Below, piece by piece: positions 4,641 to 32,230 of a DNA stretch of 64,000 bases; position 1 is the first letter of the stretch, and every line of letters starts with the position of its first letter. The notes beneath the pieces are model-generated. The model saw nothing but the letters and a program-made list of their open reading frames with translations. It had not been told where the DNA came from and did not search any database. A program made the position numbers and the translations under genes. The stretch covers positions 18,617 through 82,616 of the forward strand of contig JAUCBJ010007475.1 of the NCBI GenBank assembly GCA_032718475.1, written 5' to 3'. Source of the DNA: Nemertoderma westbladi (taxonomy: Eukaryota > Animalia > Xenacoelomorpha).

Positions 4641-4827
4641 CCACCTGCAGCTGCAATGCAGCATGCCGATCCTAGTAGTAGTAGTAGTAGATCTGATATT
4701 GATATCATCAGAGTGACTGTAGTTAGTTGTTGTAGGAGATTCATGCTACAGTCTTGCTACCACCTGTACTTCTAAAATGTCCTGTTAATAATATGTACTT
4801 TGACGATATATTGTATATTATTCTATT

Positions 4828-5036: not shown

Positions 5037-5219
5037 CACTAATAAAATGCATTTGTTTTGTTTTGTTTTATGCATTGTCAGATTGTTATTGTTTTTACAT
5101 ACATACATAATAACAATGACCGAACGTAATCAGGATCGAATGTAAATAGTTATTACGTATCGAACGTAACTGCAATTATGTTATATTGGATCCTATAACT
5201 ATGTTACATTCGATCTACA

Positions 5220-6783: not shown

Positions 6784-6815
<32 letters not shown>

Positions 6816-6912
6816 CGACGACAACGACGACGACAACTATTTGCATAAATTGACCCACCCCCTAACAGTGTCAATTCGCTAAGGCTCCGCCAACTTCGTG
6901 GCTTGCCCCACA
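5220..6912. mobile_element. Copy-A-specific non-autonomous insertion (Helentron/DINE-like) with internal 315-bp tandem repeats and (CGA)n microsatellite
   Basis: Absent from copy B, which reads TCGATCTACA|AATTACTAAGCTCG at 45181. Units start at 5715, 6030/6103, 6418 and 6733 (315-bp period). (CGA/CAA)n at ~6779-6836. Short subterminal inverted motifs CACGAAGTGG / CCAACTTCGTG. The superfamily is inferred. Confidence 0.6.
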
Positions 6913-7521
6913 AATTAATAAGCTCGAATGTATCATTGCCATTTACAGATTTAAAGGAGCAGATTACAGAGGCGTGTTGGGGGAACCAAAACAATAAACG
7001 AAAGTTAACACATGTTACAAGATTATGCAGGTTACTTTTATTTAAAGGCTGAAAGGAGCAGGTTACAGCTTACAGAGGCGTGTTGGGGGAACCAAAACAA
7101 TAAACGAAAGTTAACACATGTTTCAAGATTATGCAGGTTACTGAATTGGGTCTTGGGTCTTTGTTTTGTACTCACCAACATCAAACTGTTTCTTCCTGTA
7201 AATAAACGAAGCATTTCATCGGTTAACTCCTGAAATCAAATTATTCCCTTACAGTTTCTAAATTACTGTCACTTTGTCTATCTTCTCAGATCCCTCCAAG
7301 AATTGCGAAGAGCTGGTTGCATTTTACCCTCACTATCGTGGATTCTTACAGTCTTACTTGTCAGTAATTGTGTAAATTTGAACGACAAGTAATCTCTGAT
7401 TTTTTATTTGATCTATATTTTATATTTAATCTTAGTTATACTGGTAGCCTAATATATAATAGCTTAATTATTTATTATTGCGTACTACATGTACTATAAT
7501 AATGGCATTACAGTATAGTTG

Positions 7522-8740
7522 ATGTATCGATATTTACGAAGTGTGCCACATGTAAGAGAAAAGAACATCAGCAATCACCATCAACCAGCTCACTGTTTCA
7601 GATTTGCACATCCAGGTATCATTGTCAGAGGTTCTGCAACCACTAGTTTCAATAGACTATTTTGCCTAACTGCTGGGGCATTAGGATTTAAACACAGCTG
7701 TCTTACAAATTATAATTTGGGTTATTTCACCCACCTGCACAACAGAGCAATCACTACTGGTAATATGGATAACCTAATGGATAGCGATAGTGACAGCATC
7801 ACAGGAGAGTCTACAGTTAAAAAGAAGGTTATTAAGAAACCGGAAGCTTCTATGCCTTGTACTGCAAATAAACGACTATCTATCGAGAGAATTTATCATA
7901 AGAAGACCCAACTTGAGCATATATTGCTGAGACCTGATACTTATATTGGTTCCGTAGAAACGGTAACTCAGCCAATGTGGATTCATGATGGCAGGAAACT
8001 GCGTCTTAAAGAAGTTTCTTTTGTCCCCGGTTTGTACAAAATACACTTGAGATTCTTGTAAACGCTGCTGATACTTATTATCAGCAGCATTTACAAGAAT
8101 CTCATCAACTATTTTGTACAAACAGGGACAAACCGGGGTTCGAGATTCCAACATGAGTCTTATAAAGGTGGTCATAGAACCTGAAAACAATTTAATTAGT
8201 GTTTGGAACAATGGCAGGGGAATTCCTATACAGATACACAAAACCGAGAAAATGTACGTTCCCACCATGATTTTCGGTCATTTGCTGACCTCCAGCAACT
8301 TTGATGACGACCAGAAGAAGGTAACTGGTGGAAGAAACGGTTATGGAGCTAAATTATGTAACATTTTCTCTAAACGTTTTATCTTGGAGACGGGAAATAA
8401 AGAAGAAGATGGTGCGAAGATATTTAAACAAGAATGGAAAGATAATAAGACTCAAACAAAAGATCCTGTTGTGAAATCCGGAAGGGATAATTTTACAAGT
8501 CTTACCTTCTACCCGGATTTAGAAAAGTTTCATTTATCACGGCTCGAGGATGATTTTGTTGGAATGGTTCGTCGACGTGCCTACGATGTTGCTGCTACCA
8601 CTCAGGGTAAAGTGAACGTTACTTTCAATGGAGAACGAATACCTGTGAAGAACTTTAAGGAGTATGTGGAGCTGTACATTAAAGCAGTTCATCAGGATGA
8701 AGATGGTGAAGAAATTCCTCTTGTTTATGAAAAAATAAAT
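7522..8740 (+). pseudogene. TOP2: 3'-truncated, rearranged DNA topoisomerase II pseudogene (N-terminal ATPase region)
   Basis: ~99% identical to 45777-46937 (EHILLRPDTYIGS, VTGGRNGYGAKL); frame broken by an inverted duplication at ~8045-8137; ends in a fold-back at 8741. Confidence 0.92.
8020..8132. repeat. Imperfect inverted duplication inside the TOP2 pseudogene
   Basis: TTATTATCAGCAGCATTTACAAGAATCTCATCAACTATTTTGTACAAACAGGGACAAA is the reverse complement of the immediately upstream TOP2 sequence (LYKIxDEILVNAADNK readable on the minus strand). Confidence 0.9.
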
Positions 8741-8839
8741 GATTTATTTTTTCATAAACAAGAGGAATTTCTTCACCATCTTCATCCTGATGAACTGCTT
8801 TAATGTACAGCTCCACATACTCCTTAAAGTTCTTCACAG
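8643..8839. repeat. Perfect 197-bp palindrome (98-bp arms, 1-nt centre at 8741) at the TOP2/YTH junction
   Basis: CTGTGAAGAAC...AAAAATAAAT-G-ATTTATTTTTT...GTTCTTCACAG; the same peptide [32 protein letters not shown] is read on both strands. Confidence 0.97.
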
Positions 8840-10073
8840 CTTCCTCATCCTCCAGTTCAACATCTTCGAGTTCCAACTCGGGATCCGGGGGTCGCCATGG
8901 GGACCGTCGACGCGCGGACGCCCCCCAGCGTGTCGGAACGAAAGGTCGTCGTCGCCGGCGGTCCCCCCGTGGTGACGAGAGGAAGCGATCGGAGCGTTCC
9001 CCCCGCGCGGAACGCGAGCGGTCTCCGCGTCGCAAACGGAAGTCCCGTTCCCGATCCAAACCCAAGGAGTCGGGGAGACGGGGGCTCGAGCGGGACGGTG
9101 GGGGAAAGCGGGGGGACGGGGGAGGGGCGAAACAGATGGAGGAAAGACATAAGGACAACAGAGAGGCCAGGGAGGCGAGTTTGGAACGGCATCGAGAGAA
9201 AAATAGAAAATACGTTCGATATTTAATGAGAGAAGCGAGATTCTTCGTGATAAAAAGTAACAACCACGAGAAAGTGGCGTTGGCCAAGGCGAAAGGGGTT
9301 TGGTCAACACCACCTATGAACGAAAAGCGTTTGAACTGGGCCTTCAAAGAGTCGCGCAATGTAATTCTAATATTCTCTGTGAAGGAGAGCGGAAAGTTTC
9401 AGGGCGTAGCGAGATTGGCGAAGTTGTCCAACCGAGATGGGCCTATGGTTCAGTGGGTTCTTCCGCAAGGGTTGACGAACGCGGCTCTAGGCGGCGTCTT
9501 TAAGATCGACTGGCTCAACCGGAAGGATCTGCACTTCGAGAAGACTGCGCATCTCTTCAACCCCTGGAACGAGAACAAACCAGTTAAGATCGGTCGCGAC
9601 GGACAGGAGGTTGAACCCGGATGCGCCAAGGCGCTGTGTGATCTGTTCCCGCCTGACGATCACATATCCGTCGCGGATATCGTGCGACGTGTGCGACGCG
9701 ATCGCGCGATGGAAGGCGATGATATCGATTGTAAGCGTCGTAAAGGCGCGCCCGAGACGCCGCTGGATGGGGGGTCGGTTCGGGATCGGCGACCTCCACC
9801 GAGACGGGACGACGATAGGTACCACCGAGCCGAGCGCTACCGACCCCCCCCCCCCCCCCCGAGCGATACGGGTTCCTGCCGCCCCCGCCCCCCATGATGA
9901 TCCCGGCGGGGGGCGGGGTCTACGGGCCTCCCCCGCCCGGCTACCCCCCAATGCCCCCCCGACCCAGCCCCTACTCAACCCCTATCTACATGGACGCGTC
10001 CGGCCCTGTCCCGGGTTACACTCGCTCAGGTAACGGACGCGACGATACCCGGTACCTTCCTCGACGCAGATAG
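8803..10073 (+). CDS. YTHDC1: YTHDC1-like m6A reader ORF (RS-rich region, YTH domain, Pro-rich tail); N-terminally truncated/chimeric, possibly a pseudogene
   Basis: [74 protein letters not shown]. The ORF track stops at 9897, but a frame change in the C17 run (9844-9860) gives a Pro/Tyr-rich tail [11 protein letters not shown]...YLPRRR* ending at 10073. No introns. Confidence 0.85.
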
Positions 10074-11240: not shown

Positions 11241-14200
11241 ATGATGCCACACTTACCTACAGTACCTGTTCTACCTCAACCCTGATGCCACACCTACCTA
11301 CCTACCTACCTACCTTGCTACCTCAACTCTGATGATGCCACACTTACCTGCCTGTTTAGATGCCACACTTACCTACCTGTTCTGATGCCACACTTCCTAC
11401 TTGTTCTGATGCCACACTTACCTTCTTGTTCTGATGCCACACTTCCCTAAATGTTTTAATGCCACACTTACCTACTTGTTCTGATGACACACTTACCTAC
11501 CTGTTCTGTTGCCACACTTACCTCTTGTTCTGATGCCACACTTACCTACTTGTTCTGATGCCACACTTACCTACCTGTTCTGATGCCACACTTACCTACT
11601 TGTTCTGATGCCACACTTACCTACTTGTTCTGATGCCACACTTACCTACCTGTTCTGATGCCACACTTACCTACTTGTTCTGATGCCACACTTACCTTCT
11701 TGTTCTGATGCCACACTTACCTTCTTGTTCTGATGCCACACTTACCTAACTGTTTTGATGCCACACTTACCTACTTGTTCTGATGCCACACTTACCTACC
11801 TGTTCTGATGCCACACTTACCTACTTGTTCTGATGCCACACTTACCTACTTGTTCTGATGCCACACTTAACCTACCTGTTCTGATGCCACACTTACCTAC
11901 TTGTTCTGATGCCACACTTACCTTCTTGTTCTGATGCCACACTTACCTTATTGTTCTGATGCCACACTTACCTAACTGTTTTGATGCCACACTTACCTAC
12001 TTGTTCTGATGCCACACTTACCTACCTGTTCTGATGCCACACTTACCTACCTGTTCTGATGCCACACTTACCTACCTGTACTAATGCCACACTTTCCTAC
12101 TTGTTCTGATGCCACACTTACCAACCTGTTCTGATACCACTCTTACCTACCTATTCTGATGCCACACTTATCTACCTTGCTACCTCAACTCTGATGCCAC
12201 ACTTACCTACCTTGCTACCTCAACTCTGATGCCACTCTTATCTACCTTGCTATCTCAACTCTGATGCCACTCGTATCTACCTTGCTACCTCAACTCTGTT
12301 GCCACACTTACCTACCTTGCTACCTCAACTCTGATGCCACACTTACCTACTTGTTCTGATGCCACACTTACCTACTTGTTCTGATGCCTCACTTATCTAC
12401 CTGTTCTGATGCCACACTTACCTACTTGTTCTGATGCCACACTTACCTACCTGTTCTGATGCCACACTTACATACTTGTTCTGATTCCACACTTACCTAC
12501 TTGTTATGATGCCACACTTACCTACCTGTTCTGATGCCACACTTACCTACTTGTTCTAATGCCACACTTACCTACCTGTTCTGATGCCACACTTACCTAC
12601 GTGTTCTGATGCCACACTTACCTAACTGTTCTGATGCCACTCTTATCTACCTATTCTGATGCCACACTTATCTACCTTGCTACCTTAACTCTGATGCCAC
12701 ACTTACCTACCTTGCTACCTCAACTCTGATGCCACTCTTATCTACCTTGCTATCTCAACTCTGATGCCACTCTTATCTACCTTGCTACCTCAACTCTGAT
12801 GCCACACTTACCTACCTTGCTACCTCAACTCTGATGCCACTCTTATCTACCTTGCTACCTCAACTCTGATGCCACACTTACCTACCTTGCTACCTCAACT
12901 CTGATGCCACTCTTATCTACCTTGCTACCTCAACTCTGATGCCACACTTACCTACCTTGCTACCTCAACTCTGATGCCACTCTTATCTACCTTGCTACCT
13001 CAACTCTGATGCCACTCTTATCTACCTTGCTACCTCAACTCTGATGCCACACTTACCTACCTTGCTACCTCAACTCTGATGCCACTCTTATCTACCTTGC
13101 TACCTCAACTCTGATGACACACTTACCCACCTTGCTACCTCAACTCTGATGCCACTCTTATCTACCTTGCTACCTCAACTCTGATGCCACACTTACCTAC
13201 CTTGCTACCTCAACTCTGATGCCACACTTACCTACCTTGCTACATCAACTCTGATGCCACACTTACCTACTTGTTCTCGATGCCACACTTACCTACTTGT
13301 TCTGATGCCACACTTACCTACCTGTTCTGATGCCACACTTACCTACTTGTTCTGATGCCACTCTTATCTACCTATTATGATGCCACACTTATCTACCTTG
13401 CTACCTTAACTCTGATGCCACACTTACCTACCTTGCTACCTCAACTCTGATGCCACACTTACCTACCTGTTCTGATGCCACACTTACCTACTTGTTCTGA
13501 TGCCACACTTACCTACCTGTTCTGATGCCACACTTACCTACTTGTTCTGATGCCACACTTACCTACCTGTTCTGATGCCACTCTTATCTACCTTGCTACC
13601 TCAACTCTGATGCCACACTTACCTACCTTGCTACCTCAACTCTGATGCCACACTTACCTACTTTTTCTGATGCCACACTTACCTACTTGTTCTGATGACA
13701 CACTTAGCTACCTGTTCTGATGCCACACTTACCTGATTGTTCTGATGCCACACTTACCTACTTGTTCTGATGCCACACTTACCTACCTGTTCTGATGCCA
13801 CACTTACCTACTTGTTCTGATGCCACACTTACCTACCTGTTCTGATGCCACACTTACCTACTTGTTCTTATGCCACACTTACCTACTGTACCTGTGCTAA
13901 CCCAACAACTCTGATGCCACACTTACCTACTGTACCTGTGCTAACCCAACAACTCTGATGCCACAATTACCTACTGTACCTGTGCTAACCCAACAACTCT
14001 GATGCCACACTTATCTACTGTACCTGTGCTAACCCAACAACTCTGATGCCACAATTACCTACTGTACCTGTGCTAACCCAACAACTCTGATGCCACACTT
14101 ACCTACTGTACCTGTGCTAACCCAACAACTCTGATGCCACACTTACTTACTGTACCTGTGCTAACCCAACAACTCTGATGCCACACTTACCTACTGTACC

Positions 14201-15117
14201 TGTGCTAACCCAACAACTCTGATGCCACACTTACCTACTGTACCTGTGCTAACCCAACAACTCTGATGCCACACTTACCTACTGTACCTGTGCTAACCCA
14301 ACAACTCTGATGCCACACTTACCTACTGTACCTGTGCTAACCCAACAACTTTGATGCCACACTTACCTACTGTACCTGTGCTAACCCAACAACTCTAATG
14401 CCACACTTATCTACTGTACCTGTGCTAACCCAACAACTCTGATGCCACATTTACCTACTGTACCTGTGCTAACCCAACAACTCTGATGCCTCACTTACCT
14501 ACTATACCTGTGCTAACCCAACAACTCTGATGCCACACTTACCTACTGTATCTGTGCTAACCCAACAACTCTGATGCCACACTTACCTACTGTACCTGTG
14601 CTAACCCAACAACTCTGATGCCACACTTACCTACTGTACCTGTGCCAACCCAACAACTCTGATGCCACACTTATCTACTGTACCTGTGCTAACCCAACAA
14701 CTCTGATGCCACACTTACCTACTGTACCTGTGCTAACCCAACAACTCTGATGCCTCACTTACCTACTATACCTGTGCTAACCCAACAACTCTGATGCCAC
14801 ACTTACCTACTGTTCCTGTGCTAACTCAACAACTCTGATGCCACACTTACCTACTGTACCTGTGCTAACCCAACAACTCTGATGCCACACTTACCTACTG
14901 TACCTGTGCTAACACAACAACTCTGATGCCACACTTACCTACTGTACCTGTGCTAACCCAACAACTCTGATGCCACACTTACCTACTGTACCTGTGCTAA
15001 CCCAACAACTCTGATGCCACACTTACCTACTGTACCTGTGCTAACCCAACAACTCTGATGCCACACTTACCTAAACTGTACCTGTGCTAACCCAACAACT
15101 CTGATGCCACACTTACC
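11241..15117. repeat. Composite minisatellite/satellite: shared core CTGATGCCACACTTACCTAC in blocks of 25-, 35- and 44-bp units
   Basis: Core+TTGTT/CTGTT (25), core+CTTGCTACCTCAACT (35), core+TGTACCTGTGCTAACCCAACAACT (44, from ~13870 to the end); on the order of 100+ units. Confidence 0.97.
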
Positions 15118-16946: not shown

Positions 16947-17729
16947 TCAATTCAGTTACTTGATCACCAGGGCCGAGTAACTCAAAAAATCTTGAGATTG
17001 ACCTTGAAACTAACCTTGAATCTATTTTACTAGTATTCCTATCTGAAATATTTCAAGGTCAACCTTAAGGTAGACTTAAGATTTTCCTCAAGGTAAACTT
17101 GACATTTCAAGCCGGTAACACAAAATATCTTGACTTGAGTTGAAGTCAAGATTCGAGATAAATTTCAAGGTAGCCATGGAGGTACCTTCAAATTTCAATG
17201 TATCTTCAAATCAATGTTTCAGCAGTTAGCTGTTAGCCTTCCGCTACCGGTACCGTAAGCGGCATTTTTGCAGAATACCCCAGACCCGAAATTTCTAAAT
17301 GAAACTCAGTTGATCATGAATATAATGAATGATACTGTAGCTCGAGTTATACTGTACAGCGGCACTTCTAAGAGTATGTGTACCCATGACCGGGATTTTT
17401 TGGTAGTAGCTAGTTTTTGCTACTTTTTTTTAAATTTTCTATATCAAATTAGCTATAGTTTTGTAAAAAAAAAATGTTCTAGAACAAATATTTTTTGTTC
17501 TAGAACATTTAAAAAAAAATAAATTTATTAGAAATTATTTGTTATGTTAATAAATAGTTTAATTATCTATAAACATTGATAGCTACTAATTATTTTCAAG
17601 CTAGCTAGTGATTTTACAAGTTTAGCTATCATTTAAAAAAAATTTCAGAAATTAATTGAAATTATGTGTAATAAATTGTTTTTTTTTAATAATAGCTAAC
17701 TTGCAAAATCACTAGCTAGCCTGAATATT

Positions 17730-18370
17730 AAAACAACACCAATAAAAACCTGTCCCGGAGATCCCCTACCTTCTACAATCCTGAAGGGTTGCATCCACTT
17801 ATTAATTCCAGTGTTTGTATTAATCATCAACTTGTCATTCTCTACTGCAAAAGTACCGATCCTCTTCAAGGAGTCAACATTACGGCCCCTTATTAAGAAA
17901 GTGCGCCTTGATCCAAATGTTCTAAACAACTTCAGACCAATATCTAATCTGAAGTATATAGCTAAACTCACGGAGAGAGTAGTTGCAAGACAGTTAATGC
18001 ATAATTTAACTATAAACTCACTACATGAACCTTTTCAGAGTGCCTATCGTAGCGCACACAGTGTTGAGACCGTACAGTACGATGCATTGATGATGGTGAG
18101 AGTGTTATTTTGATAATGCTAGATCTATCCGCTGCTTTCGATTCGATCGATCACGATATATTGCTTTCCACTCTAAAGAACGATTTTGGTATCTACGGCC
18201 AGACTCTAAATTGGTTCAAATCTTATTTGTCAGATCGGATACAGAAGGTTCAGATAGGCTCAGCACAATCTGCTTCCAGAACATTGCGGTATGGTGTACC
18301 ACAAGGTTCGGTACTTGGACCCCTGCTTTTCACACTGTATACTCGGTCACTATCCCGCGTTATTGCTAAA
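17730..18370 (+). pseudogene. L2/CR1-group LINE reverse transcriptase fragment
   Basis: NFRPISNL.YIAKL.ERVV, FQSAYR.AHS.ET, LDLSAAFDSIDH, GVPQGSVLGPLLF; frameshift/deletion near 18080-18110; truncated at both ends. Confidence 0.85.
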
Positions 18371-18407
18371 TATTATGGTCAATATTGTAGTCAATACAGT
18401 TTAGTAG

Positions 18408-18566
18408 TGTTATTTCAGTAATTCGTATAATATTCTGATAATAACATGACTACAGGTATAGTAAATCACATGCAGAGAGAACAACATAACGATACCGGTA
18501 GGTATATAACACAGTAGTGATAGATCCCAGTGCAAACGGTAGTTGCACATAATAACAATAATAACA
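18408..18566 (-). repeat. Copia 3' LTR
   Basis: Near-identical to 33485-33639; preceded by AGTAG. Confidence 0.9.
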
Positions 18567-18693: not shown

Positions 18694-18996
18694 TTAATGC
18701 TTCCACAAATCAGTTAAAAGTTCAATAAAGACACGTGGGTCACTCAAGATCCGAGAAAGAATAGCAGATGCGGAACTCTTGGCTTTCGTTAGGGTATCTG
18801 CCAGCTGTAGTTTAGTAGGAACCCATTTAAGTAGTTGAATATCTCCAATACGTTCTTTAATAAATGCAAAATCAATTGCAAGTCGCTTCTCTTGAGGAAT
18901 TTTTCCACTGACAAGGTCGTAAACCAACCCTTGATGGTCACAATAGTAGTAGACGTTTTTAACTTCAAGTTTTGTGATATTCTCAATGAGTATCTT
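18694..18996 (-). pseudogene. Copia RNase H C-terminal part
   Basis: KILIENITKLEVKNVYYYCDHQGL...EKRLAIDFAFIKE...WVPTKLQLADTLTK; joins in frame to ...GQYIKI at 32231 once the BEL element and one TSD copy are removed. Confidence 0.88.
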
Positions 18997-20067
18997 TGTT
19001 CGCGGTATTTCAACTTTCCATAACGCGAGTTGAATATTTTTGTATTTATTTAAAATTGATTATTCCGATATTATTACTGGGTGCGGGACCATGGGTTTTG
19101 GGCACATTCAATAAACTGGGGGCGATTTATGGGCGAACTTTGGGGCAACTTACAGGGTACGGGAATAATTTCATAATTATAAGGGCCAGGGGGGGGGGGG
19201 GGATGGAGAATTCAAGCAGTATTCAGGTTAGCCTGAGTACTATTAGGCCCTGGCCAACTTCCTGCTGCCTGTAGGGGTGGATTTGGTAATGCGCCAGGCC
19301 TAAAGGACAAGGACTGCCCTTAGCGGTCCCTGGCCAACAGCAGCTATTACGAGACTGAAAAGAACTCGGACTGCTGACTGCTTGTGTCAGGGATTTGCGA
19401 CGGGAAACGACAGCCCCTTAGTAGCCAAGCCGTTCTGGTTCTCGATGATCGAACCCTTCGGGGTTCGTGAGGGGTGGAATGGACACGCGAACGGGTCCAC
19501 CGACACGACAGACTCCTAGCCAAGCCGTACTGGTTCTCGATGACCATCCTTCGGGGTTCGAGAGGGGCGGTACGGATACGCGACAGAGTCCACCGACTGG
19601 ACCGACCCTTAGCTAAGCCGTGCTGGTTCTCGATGATCGTTCCCTTCGGGGTTCGTGAGGGGTGGAACGGACACGCGACAGGGTTGACCGACACCGACAC
19701 TACGGCACTAAGACTAGGACCAAGGGAAAAATCTGGGGAACATTAGGTAGGCTAAAATCTGAGCGAACAGTGGGTAATTAAATAATATACCGTAGGGATT
19801 TATATTATCGTGTATAATTATTGTGAATATTTGGTGTATATTGATTTGGGGAAGCCCAAAATTATTCTTAATCAGGTTTCAACTGTAGGAAGTTACATTA
19901 AAGAGTATATCCAACTAATGCAGCTTTTTATCAACCGCAAACTTGCATCTCAGAAAACATTCCTTCTCCACAATCAATATCCGGTGACTGGCCGGGGCTC
20001 GGTGGTCTGTAAAGTCACGTCTCCAGCATCGGCGTTTTTCCCCCCTGGTGTAGGGATAACGGCAACA
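18997..20067 (+). repeat. BEL 5' LTR
   Basis: Matches 31157-32230 with about 8 substitutions and a few small indels; candidate poly(A) signal ATTAAA at 19897-19902. Confidence 0.97.
19422..19700 (+). repeat. Three ~94-bp tandem units in the LTR, each with a C(UUCG)G-capped hairpin
   Basis: Units start TAGC(C/T)AAGCCG at 19422, 19517 and 19610; e.g. CGAACCC-TTCG-GGGTTCG; copies in the 3' LTR at ~31579-31860. Confidence 0.85.
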
Positions 20068-20069
20068 AA

Positions 20070-20082
20070 ATTAAGAATAATT
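20070..20082 (+). promoter_or_regulatory. Putative self-priming primer-binding site
   Basis: ATTAAGAATAATT starts after a 2-nt spacer behind the 5' LTR and is the exact reverse complement of LTR 19860-19872 (AATTATTCTTAAT); no TGG-starting tRNA PBS is adjacent to the LTR. Confidence 0.6.
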
Positions 20083-20276
20083 ACGTTCAACTTCAACTGG
20101 TGGAAGTTGAGAATCCTTCAATACTCTTCAAAAACTCTCTACGTGCTTGCCAGCACCCACTACGAGGAAACTCGGGTATTTGAGTTGAGACGAAGTCGTG
20201 GTTTAATTAATCAACAAACTCGATCTAACCAACTCGTAGTCGGCAGATCACATATTTGGAGAGTTGTTAACAGGGA

Positions 20277-20468
20277 ATGGAAGTATCGATCACACCCATT
20301 GATATAATTCAAGTTGAGCCAGGAATCTGGCACGTCGAAGTTGAAGTACAAGGAACGAACGTCGGACGATTCAGGATTACCGTTCGGGTGGTCCAAGCTG
20401 AGTACAATACCTACGAGGAACTGTTTTATGACATCGCGTATCTAGCTATCGACGAGGCGTTACAATGA
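20277..20468 (+). CDS. Small upstream ORF (63 aa) whose stop overlaps the gag start (ATGA)
   Basis: ATG in GGGAATGG context; protein-like alternating hydrophobic pattern (WHVEVEVQG..RFRITVRVV); TGA 20466-20468 overlaps gag ATG 20465-20467. Confidence 0.45.
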   Translation: MEVSITPIDIIQVEPGIWHVEVEVQGTNVGRFRITVRVVQAEYNTYEELFYDIAYLAIDEALQ

Positions 20469-23400
20469 CGACAAATAACGTATCCGATACCGACGAGATG
20501 GATCACCACACAGACTCGGAAGCCGACGAGGTACCAAACGTCAAGAACATGACCCGTCGGCTAGGGGCTCTCAAAGGTGGAGTAACCCGGGCGTATCAAC
20601 GGATGGAGAAACAACTCAAGGGAGTCAAAACCCCCCTCAATGAAGTACAAACTCAGCTTCAAAGTATCCGAAATATCCTACAGCGGTACGAAAGAATGAT
20701 ACAGGCGTACCAAGAGCTCGTTCCCTCCACCGATCAGGAAAACTACCCCAAGTTGGAAGAACACGTTGTACATCTAGATGGGTTCCGCAAACAACACCGG
20801 AGGACCCTCAGCCTTGTGAGAGGCTATGAAGAACAGTATTACAAGAGGGCTGAAAGAACAGACGCGGAATCAGTACGATCCTCCAGCATCAGGACAGCAG
20901 TACATCGCAAGAGAACGGGGTCCGCTAGAAATCAGCACTCCAGCGCTAGGAGCGAGATATCCGGCTCAGCGCGCAGTTCTCAAGGGGCGCCGCCACTCCG
21001 AGACCAACTGCGAGAACGGAAGGCATTAGCCCTCAAAGCTCGGATGGAAGATGAGTATATTCAACTGCAAGCCGAGCAAGATGTATTAGCCGCCGAAACA
21101 CAAAGGCGAGAGGCCGAACAAGCGGCTGAACGGCAGGCCGAACAACGCGAACAGGAGGCCGAGCAACGCAAACGAGAGGACGAACAACATAGACGAGAGG
21201 ATGAACGGCAGGCCGAACAACGCAAACAGGAGGCCGAACAACGCAAACAGGAGGCCGAACATCGCGGACGAGAGGCCGAACGAGAGATCGAACAACGTAA
21301 ATGGGAAGCAGAAATGCGTTAACAACACGCCGAGGCACAAGCAATTCTCATCCACAAAAAGAATGCGGATATTGCAAAACTCGCGGAATACGAAGCCGCA
21401 CTTATAGAACGGGATATTCAACTCTACGAGGACTGGGAAAGGGATATAGATCAGGAATATGAACCAATCCCGGTACCGGAATTAGAAAAGTCATTTATAC
21501 CGACAGCGGCGAAACTTCCGAAACCCGAGATCCCGCCGACCAAACAGTCTACGCTATCGGCACAAGCACCGGTGTTCCATCCCCCACCGGCTACGCTAAA
21601 GAATGAGGAACCTTATTTCCCATCCAACACCACGACAGCGAGTGTACCCAAGTACGAGCCTGAAAAGGACTTGGAACGGGACGCCACTCCCCGATCTAAC
21701 AACCCATTTACATCCACACCACAAACTCGTAGCCGCGTCATTATTAAAACTCCACCTATTATTGATCCATCAAGTATGGGAGTGAGTGCCAATAACTATA
21801 ACCCTCCGAGTCACTCTAGTTCAGACGACGTCAGCATCATCCGGGCGTTGGAGAACCGCCTTGCCATGCCTAAGATGGAGATTCGCACCTTCGAAGGAGA
21901 TCCCGTCGATTACCTCAGATTCAAGAAATGGTTCTTTGCGCAGATCGGATCAACGGACATAGCCGACGCACAGAAGTTGGTATATTTATCGCAATACCTG
22001 GGTGACAAACCACGCAGAATTATTGCATGTTTTGAAGGAGGTTCTCATGAGGCATACTATGACGCATGGAAAACTCTAGATAAAAGATACGGAAATACCG
22101 GAACTATAATTAATAAAACTCTAGAGAGACTGATACAGGACGCGGGATCACTAGGGGACCCACAGAACATCCAGGAATTCTCCGACTCTATGAAGGATGC
22201 CTACTATACTCTGAAACCCTTAAATAAGGAGGACCAGGTGAACAACATTCTAAACCTCCGACAGATCGCCCGGAAGTTCCCTGGATGGCTACAAAGTAAG
22301 TGGGCTTATAAATGTGTAGATCTCCGGCGCAGACATCCAGATCGAGATCCTAGCTTCCTTGAAATGTCGGCATTCCTGGACGATATCTCCGAAGCCATGA
22401 ATGACTCGATGTTTTCAAAACAGAGTCTCGCAAAGTTGGACGGAATAGAGAGCAACTCCAGGAGTAAGATAACCCCTCCGAAACCGAGATTCCGCCCCCC
22501 ACCGGTGAGTACGATGGCCATCACCATGGCCGAGGATTCCGACGACGAAGACTACGAGGAACCGACATCCGCCGAGGAATGGGCATGTTATCTCGCGAGT
22601 TGGGCACCCGAAAGGGAAGGCATCACAAATTCCCTGCTCTGTCTCTTCTGTGGGGAGAAACATAAAGTGGAATTCTGCAGAAAGTTTCAGTTCGCCGAAC
22701 TCGTCCCACGCTTCGAGGCGATAATGAAACACCGAGGATGCTTCCGGTGTCTTGGAACAGGTCACTATGTTCGGGAGTGCGACCAAAGATCATGCTGTGC
22801 TGTCTGTAACGACCAACGCCATCACACGCTCCTCCACATCCCCGCGAACTTCGATTTTACTACCCTCCCCTTTCGGATCGAAGCCAGGCGAAGAGGAGAA
22901 ACAAACCACGTCTTCAAAGCAACCCGGACAACCCAACGGAGAGAAACCAACCCGTTTAAAATCTCCACCGATACACCACAAGTAACAAATATTTCGGCCA
23001 CGATTAATCTTATAAATCGCCGCTACATGGTCTTCGCAAAGGTAATCCCAGTAAGGATCCAAGGAGTCGGCAAATCTTTGACGACACTCGCGTTCCTCAA
23101 TAACGGGTCCGACGGAACCATCATCGACCGGGATTTCCTCGAGCAACTCGGCCTAGAATATGAACCTTGTAAACGGCCCATACAAACCATCACCGATAAC
23201 AGAGAGGTAGAGTCCGGGGAGGTGCAACTCCAGATGGAAGGAGTGATGAAGGGCTACGAAAAGGTTAAGTTAACCATCAAGAACGCCTTGGTACACACAG
23301 ACCTCCGGGTGCGGTTCCGACAATCAGCCGAGTACGCACCCCTCATACAATTGGACCGAGACGATGTAGACCTGAGGTGCCCGCAGTTGGACGTAAACCG

Positions 23401-26400
23401 CATCACCCTACTGATCGGACTTGATACACCGGAACTACACATCCCCACCGGAGATATCGCCCGATCTATAAAACAGGATGACGGATTTTATGCTGAACGA
23501 ACAATAATGGGATGGACACTCTGCGGCATTAAGGAGGAAACTACTGACACCTATACCTACCTTCCCAAATGTCAGATTAAAGAGAATGCAACCTCCGTGG
23601 GTTATTGCTCGGCTTCGGATCTTGACGAGGATTTGTTTCTGGAAACCGAGAAAACCCAACGAGAGATGACGAAATATTTTAATTTGGAGACCCAGGAGTT
23701 CGCAGAAAAGGACGAAAACCCATCCGAAGAGGACCAATATTGTATGGACGTTCTCGACCAGGCCACGTTTAAAGACGGACACTGGTGTTCACCTATGTTA
23801 TGGAAGGACCCAAACAAACCAATGGCAAACAACGCCAGCATGGCACTTAGGTGACTTAAAGGGATTCTACGCCGGCTGAATGACCAACCCGAGATAAAGG
23901 AGAAATATAATACCGTAATCCAAGGATATCTCGATGATGGATTAGCAGAAATGGTACCACGGAATGAACTGCAAGGTGGTAAAAGAACATATTATCTCCC
24001 AACCCACTATGTAGTAGAAGCCCGCAAAGGTGGGAAAATCCGAGTGGTAAATGATGCTGCCGCTATGTACCAGGGCGAACCCCTAAACAGTCAGCTTTAC
24101 ACGGGACCCAGCATATATAGTGCACTCATCGGCGTATTGATCAGGTTCAGGGAAAACCGGGTAGCATTCACCTGTGACATCAAGGCCATGTTTCATCAAG
24201 TTCGTACGTTACCAAGAGACTCGGACTGTCTACGTATCCTATGGACGGATAAAACGCTAACTCAACAGGAGATTAGCCAACTCACGATAAAGGACGTAGA
24301 CGTAATGCGTATGGTCGTCAGGATCTTCGGCGCTAAGGACTCGCCAGTAGCATGCAGTGACATGCTAAAGAGGACGGCAACTATGTGCGAAAACGAGTTC
24401 CCTCCAACCGTCATAGAAACCATTCGACGATGCTTCTACGTGGACGACGGATGCGCCGGCGCGGATAATGTGGATGAGGCATATCGGCTAGCAATGGGGA
24501 TGGTAGAATGTCTAAAGAAAGGAGGGTTTCCGCTCGTGAAGTTCAGATCCCACGACAAAACACTTATGGAAAAGTTTCCGGAGGACATCCGGCTGGAAAA
24601 TAACAAAATGTATTCGGAGGATGTGGAACATTGTGTACTCGGGATTGAATGGGACATAGAATCAGACAAATTCATCTTCAAATATAAACCCCTACCCAAG
24701 CCTATGACAAAAAGGGGATGTTTGTCGATAAAAAGCGCCATCTTCGACCCACTAAATTTCATATCTCCAGTAACCTTGGCCGGAATGAACCTGATTAAGG
24801 AAATGTGGATAGAAGGACTGGGATGGGACAAAGAGCTCCCCCCACACCTCAGCATCAAATGGAGAAAATGGACGGAGCAGCTCGAACACCTACATCTTAT
24901 GCGGATACCTAGACCGTTCTTCCTCGATAAATTACCCACCGATATCTTCCAGCTCCACACCTTTTCGGATGCTTCGAATACCGGAATCGGCGTAGTCACC
25001 TTCTTACGGAGACTAAGTAACGATGGAAACGGCGATACAAGCTTCTTATTCTCCAAAGCAAAGACAGTATCCGGGGAATTCGTAGCAACGATTCCGAGAC
25101 TCGAGCTATAAGCTGCAGTTTGGGCAGTAAGACAGAATCGCATGGTCATGCGGAATCTACGGATCCCCATAGAATCTCAACACTTCTGGGTCGATTCGAG
25201 TATAGTTCTCTATTATCTCCACTCTCCATCACGGCGTCACACCACGTTTGTTGCAAACCGAGCCACGGAGATTAAACAGTGTACCGGCCGAGAACAGTGG
25301 CATCACGTGAACGGGAAGGAAAACCCAGCGGACTTATCAAGCCGAGGCGCCACCCCAAAACAACTCGGTAAGAGTAAACTCTGGCTTACAGGCCCGGAAT
25401 TCCTACGGCAGCCACAATTAACATGGAGTACCCGATTCGACCTCGAACTCGATAGCGGAAAATACTCCGAGGACGATAAAGAGATCCGTAAAGTCCATCG
25501 AAGCAACGCGGTGGAAATTTATAGTTGTCTGACTGAGCCTGCACAGGACTCGGGCAGGCACTATAACGTCGCGACGATCACTCAACTAGCGGCGTCTCTA
25601 CATCGGTTGATCGAGCGAGCTTCATCAATGAGACGGCTCGTCCACCACGTTATAACCCTCCGTAACTTCCTACGGTGGAAAAACAACAAACCGATAGTTC
25701 AACGGAATATACAAGAACTCATTATCGCGGAGAAGTGTATTGTTAGATATGTCCAGAGAGAAAGTTTCCCCGATGAATGGGAACAACTTAGTGCGGGCAA
25801 AACATTGAAACCAGACAGCCCAGTCTACCAACTGAGACCAATGATGGGCGAGGATGGACTGATCCGACTGAATACCCGGATGGCAAACGCACCGGTCGAA
25901 TATGAGGTTAAATACCCGGCACTTCTGCCCGGAACGTCGACACTAGCTAAGCTATTAATTCTACAATGTCACGAGGACAACCACCACGCAGGACAGAATT
26001 GGATTATAGCTAATATAAGACAAAGATATTGGATCACCCACATCCAGCCACTGATCCGGAAAGTGTTGAAACGTTGCTTCACCTGCAGACGTTACCTAGC
26101 ACCACCAATCACCCAAAAGATGGCCGACCTACCAGCCACCCGTCTACAAGCAGATTCCCCACCGTTCTACGTCACCGGAGTGGACTGTTTCGGACCGTTT
26201 ACGGTCATCGAACGACGATCCAACATCAAATGCTGGGGAGCCATCTTCACCTGCCTAAGGTCTCGGGCAATTTACCTAGATATCGTGGTAAATCTGACAC
26301 AACACGCATTCATCAACGCTCTGCGTCGGTTCGTGGCGAACAACGGGACATGCCGCCACATGTATTCCGATAATGGTACAAACTTTGTGGGAGGAGAAAG

Positions 26401-27142
26401 AGAACTTAGAGAGGCGATCGAGGGATGGTTTACCGATAACACCGCATCCCAAGTCTGGAAGGAACACCAGATACAGTGGCACTTCCAGACCCCCTTAGCG
26501 CCCCATACGAGCGGGGTATGGGAGAAACTGATCAAACTAGTGAAACGATCCATGCGCGTCGCTCTAGGCGATACCCGGGTAACCCATGACACCCTCCGCA
26601 CAACATTCTGCGAGATCACGGCTACCCTGAACAACCGACCCATTGTCCCTATCCGCGACGACCCCACAGACCTGGAGCCCCTCACTCCTAACCACCTACT
26701 GGGGAGACCCAAAACCCACGTTCTCCCGGAAACCATGTTCCCGGATCCCAACGAGATCGCGAAACATACAAACTGGAAAAAGGCCCAAGCGTTGGCAGCG
26801 CATTGGTGGAGAATTTGGGCCCAGGAGTACCTCATAACCCTCCGGACCAGGAGGAAATGGAACAACACCTACCGGAACGTCGCAGTTGGCGACATGGTAC
26901 TAGTTAAAGAAGATCTCAAAGACCGCATGCACTGGCCTGTGGCGCGGGTCGTGACCATACACCCAAGCAAAGACGGACTTGCAAGGACTGTGACGATACG
27001 AACGAAATCGGGCCACTACCAACGCCCTATCCAGAGGCTGTGCCTTCTTGAAGGCAATGATAGCGGTGATTCTACGAGAGGTGATAAGTTCCCTACTACG
27101 GATCCTGCTACAGACATTGGTGACAATTATAAATGCGTTTAA
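20465..27142 (+). pseudogene. BEL/Pao gag-pol polyprotein, single frame with three premature stops
   Basis: ORFs 20465, 21572, 23951 and 25142 share one frame, separated by TAA 21320, TGA 23852 and TAA 25109. Gag FEGDP..Y..F; triple Cys-His CLFC..H..C / CFRC...GH...C / CAVC...HHTLLH; protease site LNNGS (D>N); RT YYLP.H, DIKAMFHQV, FYVDD; RNase H LHTFSDAS, TIPRLEL; integrase HHCC, GVDCFGP, YSDNGTNF, GVWEKL. Confidence 0.95.
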
Positions 27143-27435
27143 ACCCTTCTCATCATGTTGACAAACTCTTATAAACTGTGATTTATCGACAATGAAAATG
27201 GACCCCCCTTAAAACAACTGTAACCACGCAATGGTATTTGTGTTTCCTCGTGTGTTATGTGGAGTCCAGCGTCACCCTGCAGATGTTTCGACTGACGCAG
27301 GGTCGTTTATGCATTGTTACCCTGATTTTGGTCATCAGGACCAACGATATTGGATTATTGGAAATGGTAAAGATTTGAAGTGGAATTCATTGTATTCATT
27401 GCAGTATGTTATGTTGTCCGTTGCGTGCGCAGTTC

Positions 27436-27835
27436 GGGGCGTAGGCGGTGTAACGAGTCCAGCTGTAGATCCCGGATTGCCGCGTAACACCCCCTCTATC
27501 CCGTTATTCTGGTGGGTCCATGGTGCATCCACATGACTTCGACGATAGAGGGTTTTATGTTTCTCAGTCGCGTTATTCTGGTGGGACCGTTGCGTGGATT
27601 TTGGGGCGTAGGCGGTGTAACGAGTCCAGCTGTAGATCCCAGAATGTTGCGTAACCCCATCCCACATGACTTCGTCGACTGAGCTTTATGTTGTTGGGAG
27701 TGTTATTCTGGTGGGTCCCTGGTGTATCCATGTGACTTCACTCCTAGCGTCTTCATTGTCCGTTACGTGCGCAGTTTGGGGCGTAGGCGGTGTAACGAGT
27801 CCAGCTGTAGATCCCAGATTGCCGCATAACACCCC
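27436..27835 (+). repeat. Three dispersed copies of an identical 38-nt core in the pol-ORF2 spacer
   Basis: GGGGCGTAGGCGGTGTAACGAGTCCAGCTGTAGATCCC at 27436, 27603 and 27778, each followed by a partly complementary ..TTGCCGCGTAACACCCC-like tract. Confidence 0.9.
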
Positions 27836-28390
27836 TTCCACGACAAAGATTAACCAAAGAAAATGATTGAATGTAGTTGGAAATGATGAAAAGGATCAGA
27901 CAACTCTACTATAAACCTGAATGATGACGCGTATGCTGATGAAAATGAAATGATGCGCACCCTGGTGCTGCGCTTATAACAAATGATGATAGCCGGGGGG
28001 CTATAACCCCAATGATGATGTGGAAATAAACAAAATGTGAAATAAATGGTGGAACTAAATGTGATGAAATATATGTGGAAATAAATGAAATGAGATGAAA
28101 TAATAATGAAATGAAAAAAGACGAAAAAAAAGGTATAAAAAGGTCTAAAGAAAAGAATTGGAAAAAAGAAAAGGACAAAAAAGTCATAAAAACTAGTTGG
28201 ATATTAATGTATAGCTATAGTAACTGTAAATGCTGAATGTATTAGCAATAAGATGATAGATGTCTATATAGCAATGTTATTTAATAAACTGAATTAAATG
28301 AAAAACTGAATTATTCTGCTATCGCTATAGTTTCAGACTTTCTGGACTTATAATTAACTGATCTAATTTGTAACGGATATAATCGTAAAT

Positions 28391-30991
28391 ATGGACCCAA
28401 ATCGCCAAATTATCGGCGAATTACGTAGCACGATAGATCTACTGGAATATTCGCAACCTGGATCCCCTGACTTTGATACAAATTGGAGTACCCTGCTAAA
28501 TGAGAACGTGCGAGTCATTAAATTCACCGGGCGAGAGGGACCGGATTCCAAGAATCTACGAGCCCTCCGGTTAGCCGATGCTAGTACGAGACTGAAAAGA
28601 ACTCGGAACGCAAAGGCTACCGGAGGGGATGACTTGTCGTATTGGGAAACGTTCCGGCAGAGCGTCTACAGATCCCGATGTTTGATCTACGACAACGAGG
28701 GAAATGCGACGCCCACCTCGAAAGCGATTACGTTGGCGAGATGTCAAAGTTTCGTCGACGACAAGAGTACGTACCTCGCCCACTGGGGAAACCTGTCGGA
28801 GTGTACGGCAACGCTTCGAGAGGAACGTATATCGACCATCCAGAATCGCGACGACTACCAGGAAAAGTACGGGGCGAAAGAATACGGTCGATCCTTAGTC
28901 GTCGTCCTCGGAACCCTGGACGGTTTGGTACTGGTGTGCCGAATATTCCCGACACCCAGACAGGAAGTGCAGGCAGCCGGAGCGATCTGGTTGCTAGCTC
29001 CGGAAATCCAAAAGATCCTCTTCGACTTCGACGTCATTAAAATCGGGTCGGATATCAAGGCGGACGTCCGGAACGACTACGCGAACGCTCCTGCAGGAAG
29101 AAACCGACGAGACGACCTCAACGCCCTTAGCCATTGCATCGACACTCAAACGCTACTAGCCTGGTTACGATTCGCCGAGTTCATGCGAGGATTCCAAGAG
29201 GTGAGACCGACGAAATCCGGGATCGGCTACCTCGCTGTGCTAAACGGCGGTATCGACTTCAAACCCCAGAAATTCCGGGACTATAATAAAATATATGGTG
29301 GATACCCGGAATTAGAAATAAAGAGCGAGCGAGAGGGTCGATGGAAGGACGTTGATCGGAATTGGACGATACACCAAAGGTGGGAGAATCCCGATCGACG
29401 GAACTACGTTTACGTCGTTATGGAATGCTACACCGTCGCTAAGTTTATCTGTAAGACTCTCGATAACCTCATTACGGCGGTTCCCCTTTCCTTCGTCGAC
29501 TACGACTGGAACGAGGTCATAAACCACGCGTTCAAAGCGGTCGAGAACATTACACCGGGAGAGACAAAAACGCTCGCCGTTATCGATTCCTGGGACGAGA
29601 GCGGACCTTACGACATCCCTACGATTACCGAACTTCTCGGTGCGGATGAGCCTCTGATCTCTTCGGAAGGGGAAGAGATATGGCTAAACGAGGGTGTTCT
29701 ACTCTCCACCCCGAAGCGACAACTCGAGCCGGAGGCCGCTTACCAACCGGCCGCCAAACGGGTTGCCTCGGCCGAACCGATGAAGAGAACAGGTGCTTAC
29801 ACCCCACGCGGCTCCGGTAGCCCCGTGAGGGAGGTAGCCACTACATCTGCATTGAGCGACTTCGGCGACATATGCCAACGGTTATCCCCGTATCCTTTCC
29901 CGGGTGGCGAAGATTGGTCGTCGGAGATTCCGAGTACCAGCCACCAACGGACCCGCTCAGCGATACTGGTCGAGGAGGGCCCCAGCGATGCGCCGACCCC
30001 CGACGATCTCCTCGGTATCCCTCCGTCTAAAACCCCGGCTCCTCTTCGCCGACCAGCGGTGGCTACTACACCCGCCGTTCCTCAGGACCCTATGCGACTA
30101 ACCCGTTGGTACGCCGAGCAAACTGAATGGATCCACCGCCAGAAACGGTCGTCCGAGTTGAGACCAACGGGACACAAAGAAGGTTATCGAAGCGAGAACC
30201 TACTACGCAAAAGCCTTGCATTCCGCGGGCTACCGGCCACCGCGAATATTCCGAGGAGCGACCGACGACTCGAATATTACGTCGGCCTCCCGATTCCGAT
30301 ATTCCCCGGTCGAGAGATGCAGTTGGAGGTGTGCGGCGACTGTGGTTCGGAGCAGTGCCCACGCGGTAGAAGGAATCGGGTTACCGATTCATGCCTCCAG
30401 CTCCTCGGGATACTCTATTGCCCATACTGCGCGACATCGGGCCACGACGTTTCCGTCTGCCCGATCCTATATAACCTCTGCACCACGTGCGGTTTCCATG
30501 GACATTCCTCTAGCCCCCGCTGCTATATCAAATGTCCAACCAAGGACGTAACCGCTATGGGAAATATGGTCATGTTTGAAACATACGCAAACAGCCACTT
30601 AAAGACCAAGGTTCGGAGAAACGCTCGGAATATCGCGCAGGAGATGGCGTGCGGGTATTTCTCCTTCCCGGAACGCCTCCACACGTCGGCCACGCTGCCT
30701 TTCCATTACGTGGACTTGTTGCTGAGCGCTGGATTATTCGGCCCATTCGAAGTCATTAGACGCTTATACTCGTATAAAGAGGAGTTTGGTGACGGAGAGT
30801 GGTTCCTCGAGGCTCGCAACTCCGAGTTGGAACGACGAACCGATATGATCCCGATGCCATCGAAAGGAAGAGCCGCCAGAAGACAAGCCGAAGCGTTGCT
30901 CACGATGGATGTTGACGCTCCTCTACCAGCTATAGCGATCGATGAGAGCCGACGGGCGAAAAGGCGAAAGGTGTATCAGAGAAAGAAATAG
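28391..30991 (+). CDS. Retrotransposon accessory protein: DEDDy (RNase D/WRN/Mut-7-like) 3'-5' exonuclease domain, Pro/Ser-rich linker, CCHC zinc knuckles, basic C-terminus
   Basis: Uninterrupted 866 aa. ExoI-like LIYDNEG; LAPEIQKILFDFDVIKIGSDIKAD (cf. LPxxLxxLLEDPxIxKVGxxIxxD); CIDTQTL; SGIGYLA; ExoIII-like YVVME; CPYCATSGHDVSVC (C-x2-C-x4-H-x4-C) and CTTCGFHGHSSSPRC. Domain call is by motif recognition only. Confidence 0.8.
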   Translation: MDPNRQIIGELRSTIDLLEYSQPGSPDFDTNWSTLLNENVRVIKFTGREGPDSKNLRALRLADASTRLKRTRNAKATGGDDLSYWETFRQSVYRSRCLIYDNEGNATPTSKAITLARCQSFVDDKSTYLAHWGNLSECTATLREERISTIQNRDDYQEKYGAKEYGRSLVVVLGTLDGLVLVCRIFPTPRQEVQAAGAIWLLAPEIQKILFDFDVIKIGSDIKADVRNDYANAPAGRNRRDDLNALSHCIDTQTLLAWLRFAEFMRGFQEVRPTKSGIGYLAVLNGGIDFKPQKFRDYNKIYGGYPELEIKSEREGRWKDVDRNWTIHQRWENPDRRNYVYVVMECYTVAKFICKTLDNLITAVPLSFVDYDWNEVINHAFKAVENITPGETKTLAVIDSWDESGPYDIPTITELLGADEPLISSEGEEIWLNEGVLLSTPKRQLEPEAAYQPAAKRVASAEPMKRTGAYTPRGSGSPVREVATTSALSDFGDICQRLSPYPFPGGEDWSSEIPSTSHQRTRSAILVEEGPSDAPTPDDLLGIPPSKTPAPLRRPAVATTPAVPQDPMRLTRWYAEQTEWIHRQKRSSELRPTGHKEGYRSENLLRKSLAFRGLPATANIPRSDRRLEYYVGLPIPIFPGREMQLEVCGDCGSEQCPRGRRNRVTDSCLQLLGILYCPYCATSGHDVSVCPILYNLCTTCGFHGHSSSPRCYIKCPTKDVTAMGNMVMFETYANSHLKTKVRRNARNIAQEMACGYFSFPERLHTSATLPFHYVDLLLSAGLFGPFEVIRRLYSYKEEFGDGEWFLEARNSELERRTDMIPMPSKGRAARRQAEALLTMDVDAPLPAIAIDESRRAKRRKVYQRKK

Positions 30992-31147
30992 TGGATCGGG
31001 ATATGCCAGGAACATTTATCGAACATTTATTTTTATACAAACTCTAGGCCAAATTAATTAAAAACTATGCAATATTAAATTTGGGTTTTTTATATTGGGA
31101 ATGACCTACGCAAACTCAATCTACCGACAGACTTCACGAAGGTCATT

Positions 31148-31155
31148 GGGGGGGA
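31148..31155 (+). promoter_or_regulatory. Polypurine tract of the BEL element
   Basis: GGGGGGGA-C immediately before the 3' LTR TGTT. Confidence 0.8.
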
Positions 31156-31156
31156 C

Positions 31157-32230
31157 TGTTCGCGGTATTTCAACTTTCCATAACGCGAGTTGAATATTTT
31201 TGTATTTATTTAAAATTGATTATTCCGATATTATTACTGGGTGCGGGACCATGGGTTTTGGGCACATTCAATAAACTGGGGGCGATTTATGGGCGAACTT
31301 TGGGGCAACTTACAGGGTACGGGAATAATTTCATAGTTATAAGGGCCAGGGGGGGGGGGATGGAGAATTCAAGCAGTATTCAGGTTAGCCTGAGTACTAT
31401 TAGGCCCTGGCCAACTTCCTGCTGCCTGTAGGGGTGGATTTGGTAATGCGCCAGGCCTAAAGGACAAGGACTGCCCTTAGTGGTCCCTGGCCAACAGCAG
31501 CTATTACGAGACTGAAAATAACTCGGACCGCTGACTGCTTGTGTCAGGGATTTGCGACGGGAAACAACAGCCCCTTAGTAGCCAAGCCGTTCTGGTTCTC
31601 GATGATCGAACCCTTCGGGGTTCGTGAGGGGTGGAACGGACACGCGAACGGGTCCACCGACACGACAGACTCCTAGCCAAGCCGTACTGGTTCTCGATGA
31701 CCGATCCCTTCGGGGTTCGAGAGGGGCGGTACGGATACGCGACAGAGTCCACCGACTGGACCGACCCTTAGCTAAGCCGTGCTGGTTCTCGATGATCGTT
31801 CCCTTCGGGGTTCGTGAGGGGTGGAACGGACACGCGACAGGGTCGACCGACACCGACACTACGGCACTAAGACTAGGACCAAGGGAAAAATCTGGGGAAC
31901 ATTAGGTAGGCTAAAATCTGAGCGAACAGTGGGTAATTAAATAATATACCGTAGGGATTTATATTATCGTGTATAATTATTGTGAATATTTGGTGTATAT
32001 TGATTTGGGGAAGCCCAAAATTATTCTTAATCAGGTTTCAACTGTAGGAAGTTACATTAAAGAGTATATATATCCAACTAATGCAGCTTTTTATCAACCG
32101 CAAACTTGCATCTCAGAAAACATTCCTTCTCCACAATCAATATCCGGTGACTGGCCGGGGCTCGGTGGTCTGTAAAGTCACGTCTCCAGCATCGGCGTTT
32201 TTCCCCCCTGGTGTAGGGATAACAGCAACA
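31157..32230 (+). repeat. BEL 3' LTR
   Basis: Direct repeat of 18997-20067, followed by TSD ATCTT. Confidence 0.97.

Follow-up and report, generated by a model that had tools for sequence, protein, structure and literature searches.

How is reverse transcription primed in a BEL/Pao retrotransposon that holds no tRNA-type site beside its 5' LTR? The question is raised by an element in a 64,000-nt stretch of Nemertoderma westbladi DNA (contig JAUCBJ010007475.1), here called the window. An earlier note, made from the letters of this stretch, had claimed an exact 13-nt complement of the element's own LTR, 2 nt behind that LTR, and had read it as self-priming. We followed up this claim computationally, by controls on shuffled LTRs, comparison with relatives and RNA folding.

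Results

Element architecture and insertion site

The LTR retrotransposon covered 18997-32230 of the window (13,234 nt; Table 1). Its two LTRs aligned with 8 mismatches and 9 gap columns. An RVT_2 match revealed that the minus strand carries a frame for Copia RT/RNase H, split in two halves by the element; since the flanks are the two halves of one frame, both boundaries were confirmed without LTR alignment. The Copia remnant was located at 18694-18996 and 32231-33162 on the minus strand, its RNase H region being interrupted by the insertion.

The gag-pol frame encoded, in order, a DUF1759 capsid, Cys-His knuckles, a protease-like stretch, RT (YVDD), a Peptidase_A17/RNase H region, an H2C2 integrase domain and DUF5641. 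The TG...CA LTRs with their target-site duplication, the PR-RT-RNase H-IN order and the matches to PF03564, PF05380 (found in all of 120 homologs among the matches listed) and PF18701 are features of BEL/Pao, to which we assign the element by its protein. Judged by three in-frame stops in gag-pol (codons 258, 1102 and 1521), this copy is dead.

Several repeats were noticed within the element: three tandem repeats of ~95 nt in U3 of the 5' LTR (19422-19712), with hairpin potential, and three repeats of ~170 nt between pol and the extra frame (27414-27841). Elsewhere the window contained a non-LTR RT fragment at about 17700-18421, a nested satellite at 11333-15117 (related 25-, 35- and 44-nt units, strong C skew) and a topoisomerase II gene at 45774-50711 on the plus strand, one uninterrupted frame of 1645 codons at most 63% identical to the 120 matches listed. 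A multi-kilobase duplication (1342-8436 versus 34050-46633, 98-100% alike) included a partial topoisomerase II copy near 7500-8800, beside a YTH-domain frame at 8794-9897.

Table 1. Features of the element, in window coordinates
Feature	Position	Strand	Remark or basis
Left target-site duplication	18992-18996	+	ATCTT
5' LTR	18997-20067	+	1071 nt, TGTT...AACA
Imperfect TATA-like boxes (19801, 19813, 19837)	19801-19842	+	sequence
Predicted 5-bp hairpin adjoining the primer 5' side	19846-19859	+	pair probability 0.63
Candidate self-primer	19860-19872	+	13 nt; predicted 3' end U19872
ATTAAA poly(A)-like signal	19897-19902	+	24 nt after primer 3' end; presumably used in the 3' LTR copy
2-nt spacer AA, LTR end to primer-binding site	20068-20069	+	sequence
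Putative primer-binding site	20070-20082	+	exact complement of 19860-19872; no TGG start
Predicted 9-bp hairpin just 3' of the primer-binding site	20086-20111	+	folding
Single gag-pol frame	20549-27142	+	2197 codons
Extra open frame	28367-30991	+	874 codons; open though gag-pol is broken
Polypurine tract G7 and 2-nt spacer AC	31148-31156	+	sequence
3' LTR	31157-32230	+	1074 nt; 13-mer copy at 32019-32031
Right target-site duplication	32231-32235	+	ATCTT

A 13-nt complement beside the 5' LTR

The central observation of the earlier note, an exact self-complement 2 nt after the LTR where no tRNA-type site is present, was borne out by the coordinates and by shuffling. The complement could not be extended at either side. 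Its LTR 13-mer had a second copy at 32019 in the 3' LTR and none elsewhere in the window, and among ~11,000 positions of the internal region only start 20070 gave a 13-nt complement in the LTR. A search for a GT-AG intron in the element's LTR that would lengthen the match left the 13 contiguous nucleotides as the best. The 2-nt spacers are symmetric, AA at the primer-binding site and AC between the polypurine tract and the 3' LTR.

The note had cautioned that AT richness makes a chance match less surprising. The composition was as it said, 12 of the 13 bases being A or T, but its weight turned out to be small. Shuffled LTRs were scored for the best complement with its start 0-6 nt behind the LTR: 13 nt were reached in 0/5000 dinucleotide shuffles of the whole LTR and in only 2/5000 shuffles in 100-nt blocks, in which local AT richness is kept. 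None of 92 host stretches of LTR length reached even 10 nt.

The pattern of a tRNA primer site includes a complement of the T-arm. No TGG was found within 6 nt of the 5' LTR end; the TGG at 20098 was considered as a tRNA site and rejected, as it lies 30 nt from the LTR and is without a T-arm complement. The 64-kb window contained no tRNA gene, and Rfam gave no match near gathering score in 18900-32300. Contigs from one sequencing run (0.19 of words shared) were ~95% alike and left 20055-20123 uncovered; they had 19860-19872 unchanged, which is uninformative at such divergence. A scan of viral contigs for relatives found none.

Distant relatives and a probable spliced form of the complement

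Among the matches listed, the closest proteins were 33-39% identical in RT/RNase H, and those with names belonged to fish, echinoderms, corals, one mussel and one tunicate. We took 92 loci, namely the best 80 of 534 metagenome matches and 12 from genome contigs; protein identity to the relatives compared was 32-40%. The 12 contigs of the latter group (L081-L092) belong to bacterial metagenome-assembled genomes; the elements in them are animal BEL/Pao ones, and host contamination is the most likely source. Twenty loci with a repeated LTR piece were inspected for its end, and 12 had a clean CA end. One of these, L063, duplicated L061 and was removed, so that the main test comprised 11 families in which two-copy divergence fixes the LTR end.

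The site started with TGG in none of the 11 families. Three had a contiguous complement of at least 10 nt, and in 7 of the 8 others the start of the best short match coincided with a pyrimidine-rich AG. With one GT-AG junction allowed, all 11 showed a complement of 10-15 nt (at least 11 nt in ten of them), placed 0-4 nt after the LTR: eight paired across the exon-exon junction of an LTR intron, and three were contiguous like the window element. Controls reached 10 nt or more in 5/130 mismatched pairs and 3/192 downstream windows. The donors were mostly GTAAGT or GTGAGT, though any GT was permitted, and from these splice motifs we infer that the LTR introns are spliced. LTR introns of ~66-490 nt that would leave the site's complement at their exon-exon junction were seen in L001, L003, L004, L011, L012, L014, L019, L029, L036, L038, L040, L043, L050, L058, L061, L062, L065, L069, L070, L075, L088 and L089.

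The remaining eight of the 20 loci gave 12-14 nt in L019, L027, L029 and L053, and, with hand-chosen ends, 10-11 nt in L044 and 10 nt in L056 (family of L051); no convincing end or match was found in L021 and L078. The site of L029 starts with TGG by chance, a 14-nt junction match explaining it. Upstream sequence was long enough for a blind scan in 72 loci, the window element among them; at least 11 nt were reached in 39/72 loci versus 22/216 swapped controls, and in 32/56 families. The scan was noisy, with the top match misplaced in some loci (L010, L075, L076, L084).

That two AT-rich stretches complement each other by chance, a reading with the base composition and the two block shuffles on its side, is hardly credible given the shuffle results as a whole, the 11/11 families and the excess of the blind scan over its controls.

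The primer 3' end, a signature not used in the main test, was AC in eight of the 11 families, AT in one and ACT in two; among 33 hand-picked elements, chosen partly by eye, it was AC in 29, AT in two (one of them the window element) and ACT in two. Compensatory changes between site and LTR, which the earlier note had proposed as a check, were found between sisters in these distant relatives: in L088 and L089 the exon-1 ends TAA and CAC were matched by the sites TTA and GTG, and compensated changes also occurred in L001/L007 and in L058/L065/L070.

These comparisons bear on another possible primer. A host RNA (a tRNA fragment, mitochondrial tRNA, pre-tRNA trailer or spliced-leader RNA) could bind the site, the LTR match being incidental or a captured copy. 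The family is described as tRNA-primed by ICTV (PMC8742986), half-tRNA primers occur in Copia lineages according to the available part of PMC6317226, and the site taken together with its spacer has a complement with the UUU end of a Pol III transcript. We nevertheless regard this as improbable: a chance match has a frequency of at most 4 in 10,000, the site of each relative differs and is matched by its own LTR, and the window element has neither a nearer TGG than the one at 20098 nor the Rfam match sought above. A single host RNA cannot account for sites whose primers vary in sequence from family to family.

A FastTree RT/RNase H tree of 90 sequences was midpoint-rooted and contained no tRNA-primed outgroup. 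The window element formed its longest branch (1.42) and grouped with L043 and L025 (local support 0.96), possibly by long-branch attraction, so its placement is weak; L043 had an 11-nt spliced complement. With the best proteins only 39% identical and this weak placement, the comparative support is that of a broad lineage and not of close sisters. Contiguous forms were scattered over several separate places of the tree, which suggests repeated loss or gain of the intron. In L071, the LTR pieces 145-326 and 6924-7103 were 88% alike and differed just upstream of the primer 3' half, one with a splice acceptor and the other with a contiguous complement; intron-bearing and intron-less subfamilies may have been joined in the assembly.

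Transcript start and RNA folding

The TATATT at 19837, the ATTAAA at 19897 and the G7 tract with AC before the 3' LTR were all found where the earlier note had placed them. Its TATA claim held as far as this TATATT is concerned; a consensus TATAWAW was absent from the LTR, which has three imperfect boxes instead, and the transcript start is therefore not fixed by the sequence. Usual TATA-to-start spacing is ~30 nt. From the boxes at 19801 and 19813 this would give starts near 19831 and 19843, both of which fit the helix of primer and site; from the box at 19837 it would give a start near 19867, inside the primer, which does not fit the predicted helix. A Tf1-style RNA start at 19860 is unsupported, and a start upstream of it is compatible with self-priming. 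The relatives point in the same direction: a TATA-like box within 160 nt upstream of the primer was present in 8/33 hand-picked elements and at ~30 nt in only one (L088 has a box at 26 nt when the donor of the GT-AG test is taken, which makes one or two families in all). It is therefore probable that the primer often lies within the transcript.

In RNA starting at 19843, the 13-bp helix appeared in both the MFE and the centroid fold; the fold of the whole region was not better than that of shuffles (z -1.28). With two 3' ends each, the mean pair probability of the helix was 0.95-0.97 for 5' ends 19843-19860, 0.45-0.79 for 19820 and 0.03-0.68 for 19800, and the helix was lost for 19760 (0.05-0.28), 19700 (0.0) and 19867 (0.05-0.12). 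With a third 3' end the weakest helix pair was at 0.67-0.72. The duplex is weak, at -9.8 kcal/mol with one G-C pair.

Side duplexes of the Tf1 type gave z -0.9 and +0.3 in the window element and were not enriched among 28 elements (3 and 2 at z < -1.65, mean z about -0.1), in a test with fixed windows by which short helices could be missed. A near-direct repeat (19879-19895 and 20092-20108, 15/17 identical) has one copy shortly behind the primer and the other shortly behind the primer site; its second copy forms a hairpin, and cross-pairing of the copies was not above shuffles (z -0.9).

The helix encloses ATTAAA, which is itself predicted to be paired. This would suit a regulatory helix, serving packaging, dimerisation or the masking of the 5' poly(A) signal, with priming by another route. 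We consider such a role highly improbable as the whole explanation, because across families the pairing lies 0-5 nt from the LTR end, the sole position that priming requires, with a fixed primer end signature and no other primer site present.

The extra frame downstream of pol

The extra open frame had no Pfam match of note in a profile search, and its reading as env was rejected, as Pfam gave no support. Its N-terminal part resembled two proteins, P0244 and P0245, with weak leads to 3'-5' exonucleases: the atlas score was 0.91, with PF01612 in 50% of that cluster, and P0244 matched PF01612 at E 0.2. The candidate Cys-His knuckles at the C-terminus, also a weak lead, are shared with P0244, as is the architecture. 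The first acidic motif of the two homologs is degenerate in the window's frame, the predicted fold of the N-terminal part had a pLDDT of 32.5, and no PDB match was found. An exonuclease-like product is thus a lead only.

This lead would matter if the primer were the element's own RNA taken from the 3' LTR copy at 32019-32031, the 3' end of the genomic RNA losing its poly(A) tail and being trimmed to the duplex edge, possibly by the extra-frame product, with priming in cis (a circle) or in trans (a partner RNA). The 13-mer is indeed present in both LTRs, and a poly(A)-like hexamer followed the primer within 35 nt in 14/33 hand-picked elements, an uncontrolled count; the weak exonuclease leads fit as well. 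However, the relatives that carry the signature have their LTR within a few hundred bases of pol, with no room for an extra frame, the exonuclease assignment is unproven for the reasons just given, and the proven precedent, Tf1, uses the 5' copy. We rate the 3' copy as an unlikely source of the primer.

Discussion

Proposed mechanism

The complements in the relatives and the folding both support the self-priming reading. A primer derived from the element's own RNA is very probable in any form, and that the 5' LTR copy serves as this primer, replacing the tRNA, is likely. Transcription would start between about 19820 and 19860, as the folding suggests. Folding predicts that 19860-19872, in R, pairs with 20070-20082 and so closes a loop of ~197 nt. 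One cleavage behind U19872, for which the element's own RT/RNase H is the probable enzyme (by analogy with Tf1 only), would free a 3'-OH on the capped 5' fragment; this end RT would extend across the 2-nt AA spacer and U5 and into R, as far as 19873. The resulting DNA of ~197 nt would jump to the 3' R, with which it would share roughly 40-50 nt provided that ATTAAA serves as poly(A) signal, and integrase would later trim 2 extra nt at each end.

The earlier note had treated self-priming as special to the lineage of this element. Our data did not confirm this view: the signs of it are common to a wide set of aquatic-animal BEL/Pao families, mostly via splicing. The best reading of the sequences is that self-priming belongs to a wide lineage rather than to the window element alone. 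Most of the relatives sampled would assemble the primer by splicing out an LTR intron, and the window element would represent the form without an intron.

Wider meaning

We think it reasonably likely, with some reserve, that a large and old animal BEL/Pao lineage, with relatives in fish, echinoderms, corals, molluscs and tunicates, gave up priming by tRNA and uses a self-primer internal to R instead, independently of Tf1 and mostly via LTR-intron splicing, and that intron-less forms arose several times. If true, a broad branch of BEL/Pao departs from the reference description of host-tRNA priming, and self-priming arose in all three LTR superfamilies. The primer would then not need to be the first bases of the RNA, and where it is made by LTR-intron splicing, replication would be tied to host splicing. 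Such a trait would also explain the many BEL/Pao elements annotated without a primer site, and would provide an annotation rule: look 0-5 nt behind the LTR for a complement of 10-15 nt that ends in AC or AT and is either contiguous or joined across an LTR intron. The RNA-DNA junction to be expected on strong-stop DNA would also be sharply predicted.

Comparison with known systems

The ICTV profile of Belpaoviridae describes host-tRNA priming, poorly understood, from an 18-nt site for tRNA-Arg or tRNA-Gly, in genomes of 4.2-10 kb with LTRs of 0.2-1.2 kb (PMC8742986). The window element is like Belpaoviridae/Semotivirus members (Tas, BEL, roo, Pao, Cer) in its LTRs, the PR-RT-RH-IN gag-pol, the BEL-specific Pfam families and the short polypurine tract, and its LTR of 1.07 kb is in range. 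It differs in being without the 18-nt tRNA site, in its 13.2 kb and in an extra frame that is not env-like. Within the BEL group, Cer7 of Caenorhabditis elegans has reportedly been proposed to encode its own primer; this is said to be a separate tRNA-like RNA inside the element, not an LTR fold-back.

The literature searched, which did not extend to subscription journals, Repbase reports and supplements, contained no account of self-priming in BEL/Pao. The available parts of the self-priming papers (PMC6317226, PMC7175516, PMC4600332, 10.1101/2022.12.06.519325, PMC5445492, PMC5443660, PMC3601003) do not assign self-priming to BEL/Pao. By term search of the available text, primer, PBS and tRNA are unmentioned in PMC3118150, PMC8556966 and PMC6238403, and PBS, tRNA and priming in PMC554778.

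As far as the available sections of the self-priming papers listed above go, self-priming is described for Tf1/sushi and Tcn1 and predicted for Copia TAR. For the TAR lineage of plant Ty1/copia (Houba, Osr-1), the prediction in the accessible part of PMC6317226 comes from a complement of at least 10 nt lying 0-5 nt after the LTR, which the window element also has. TAR elements differ in belonging to the Copia superfamily and to plants, and self-priming there is, in that text, likewise only predicted. The bdelloid LTR elements Juno and Vesta, in the available portion of PMC5408684, carry a DEDDy exonuclease as third frame; the window element resembles them in that pol is followed by a further frame showing exonuclease-like and Cys-His features. 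They are apparently not BEL/Pao, and the exonuclease call in the window element is a lead.

The closest likeness is to Tf1/sushi (S. pombe Tf1/Tf2, Tj1, Tcn1), whose site can pair with 11-13 nt of RNA from the element's own LTR in the accessible parts of PMC7175516, PMC4600332 and 10.1101/2022.12.06.519325. Both lack a tRNA site and have a primer-binding site beside the 5' LTR that is complementary to the own LTR. In Tf1, as described in the sections available, the primer consists of the RNA's first 11 bases, RNase H cuts between bases 11 and 12 (PMC7175516) and a three-duplex 'pretzel' is required, whereas the relatives of the window element point to an internal primer, many of them would form it by splicing, and the side helices are not conserved in the window element and its relatives. 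Tf1/sushi elements are Ty3/gypsy chromoviruses; the window element is BEL/Pao and has no chromodomain match. Because the superfamilies differ, an origin independent of Tf1 is likely. By analogy, then, the element would work like Tf1 in its self-priming, and it is not a member of Tf1/sushi.
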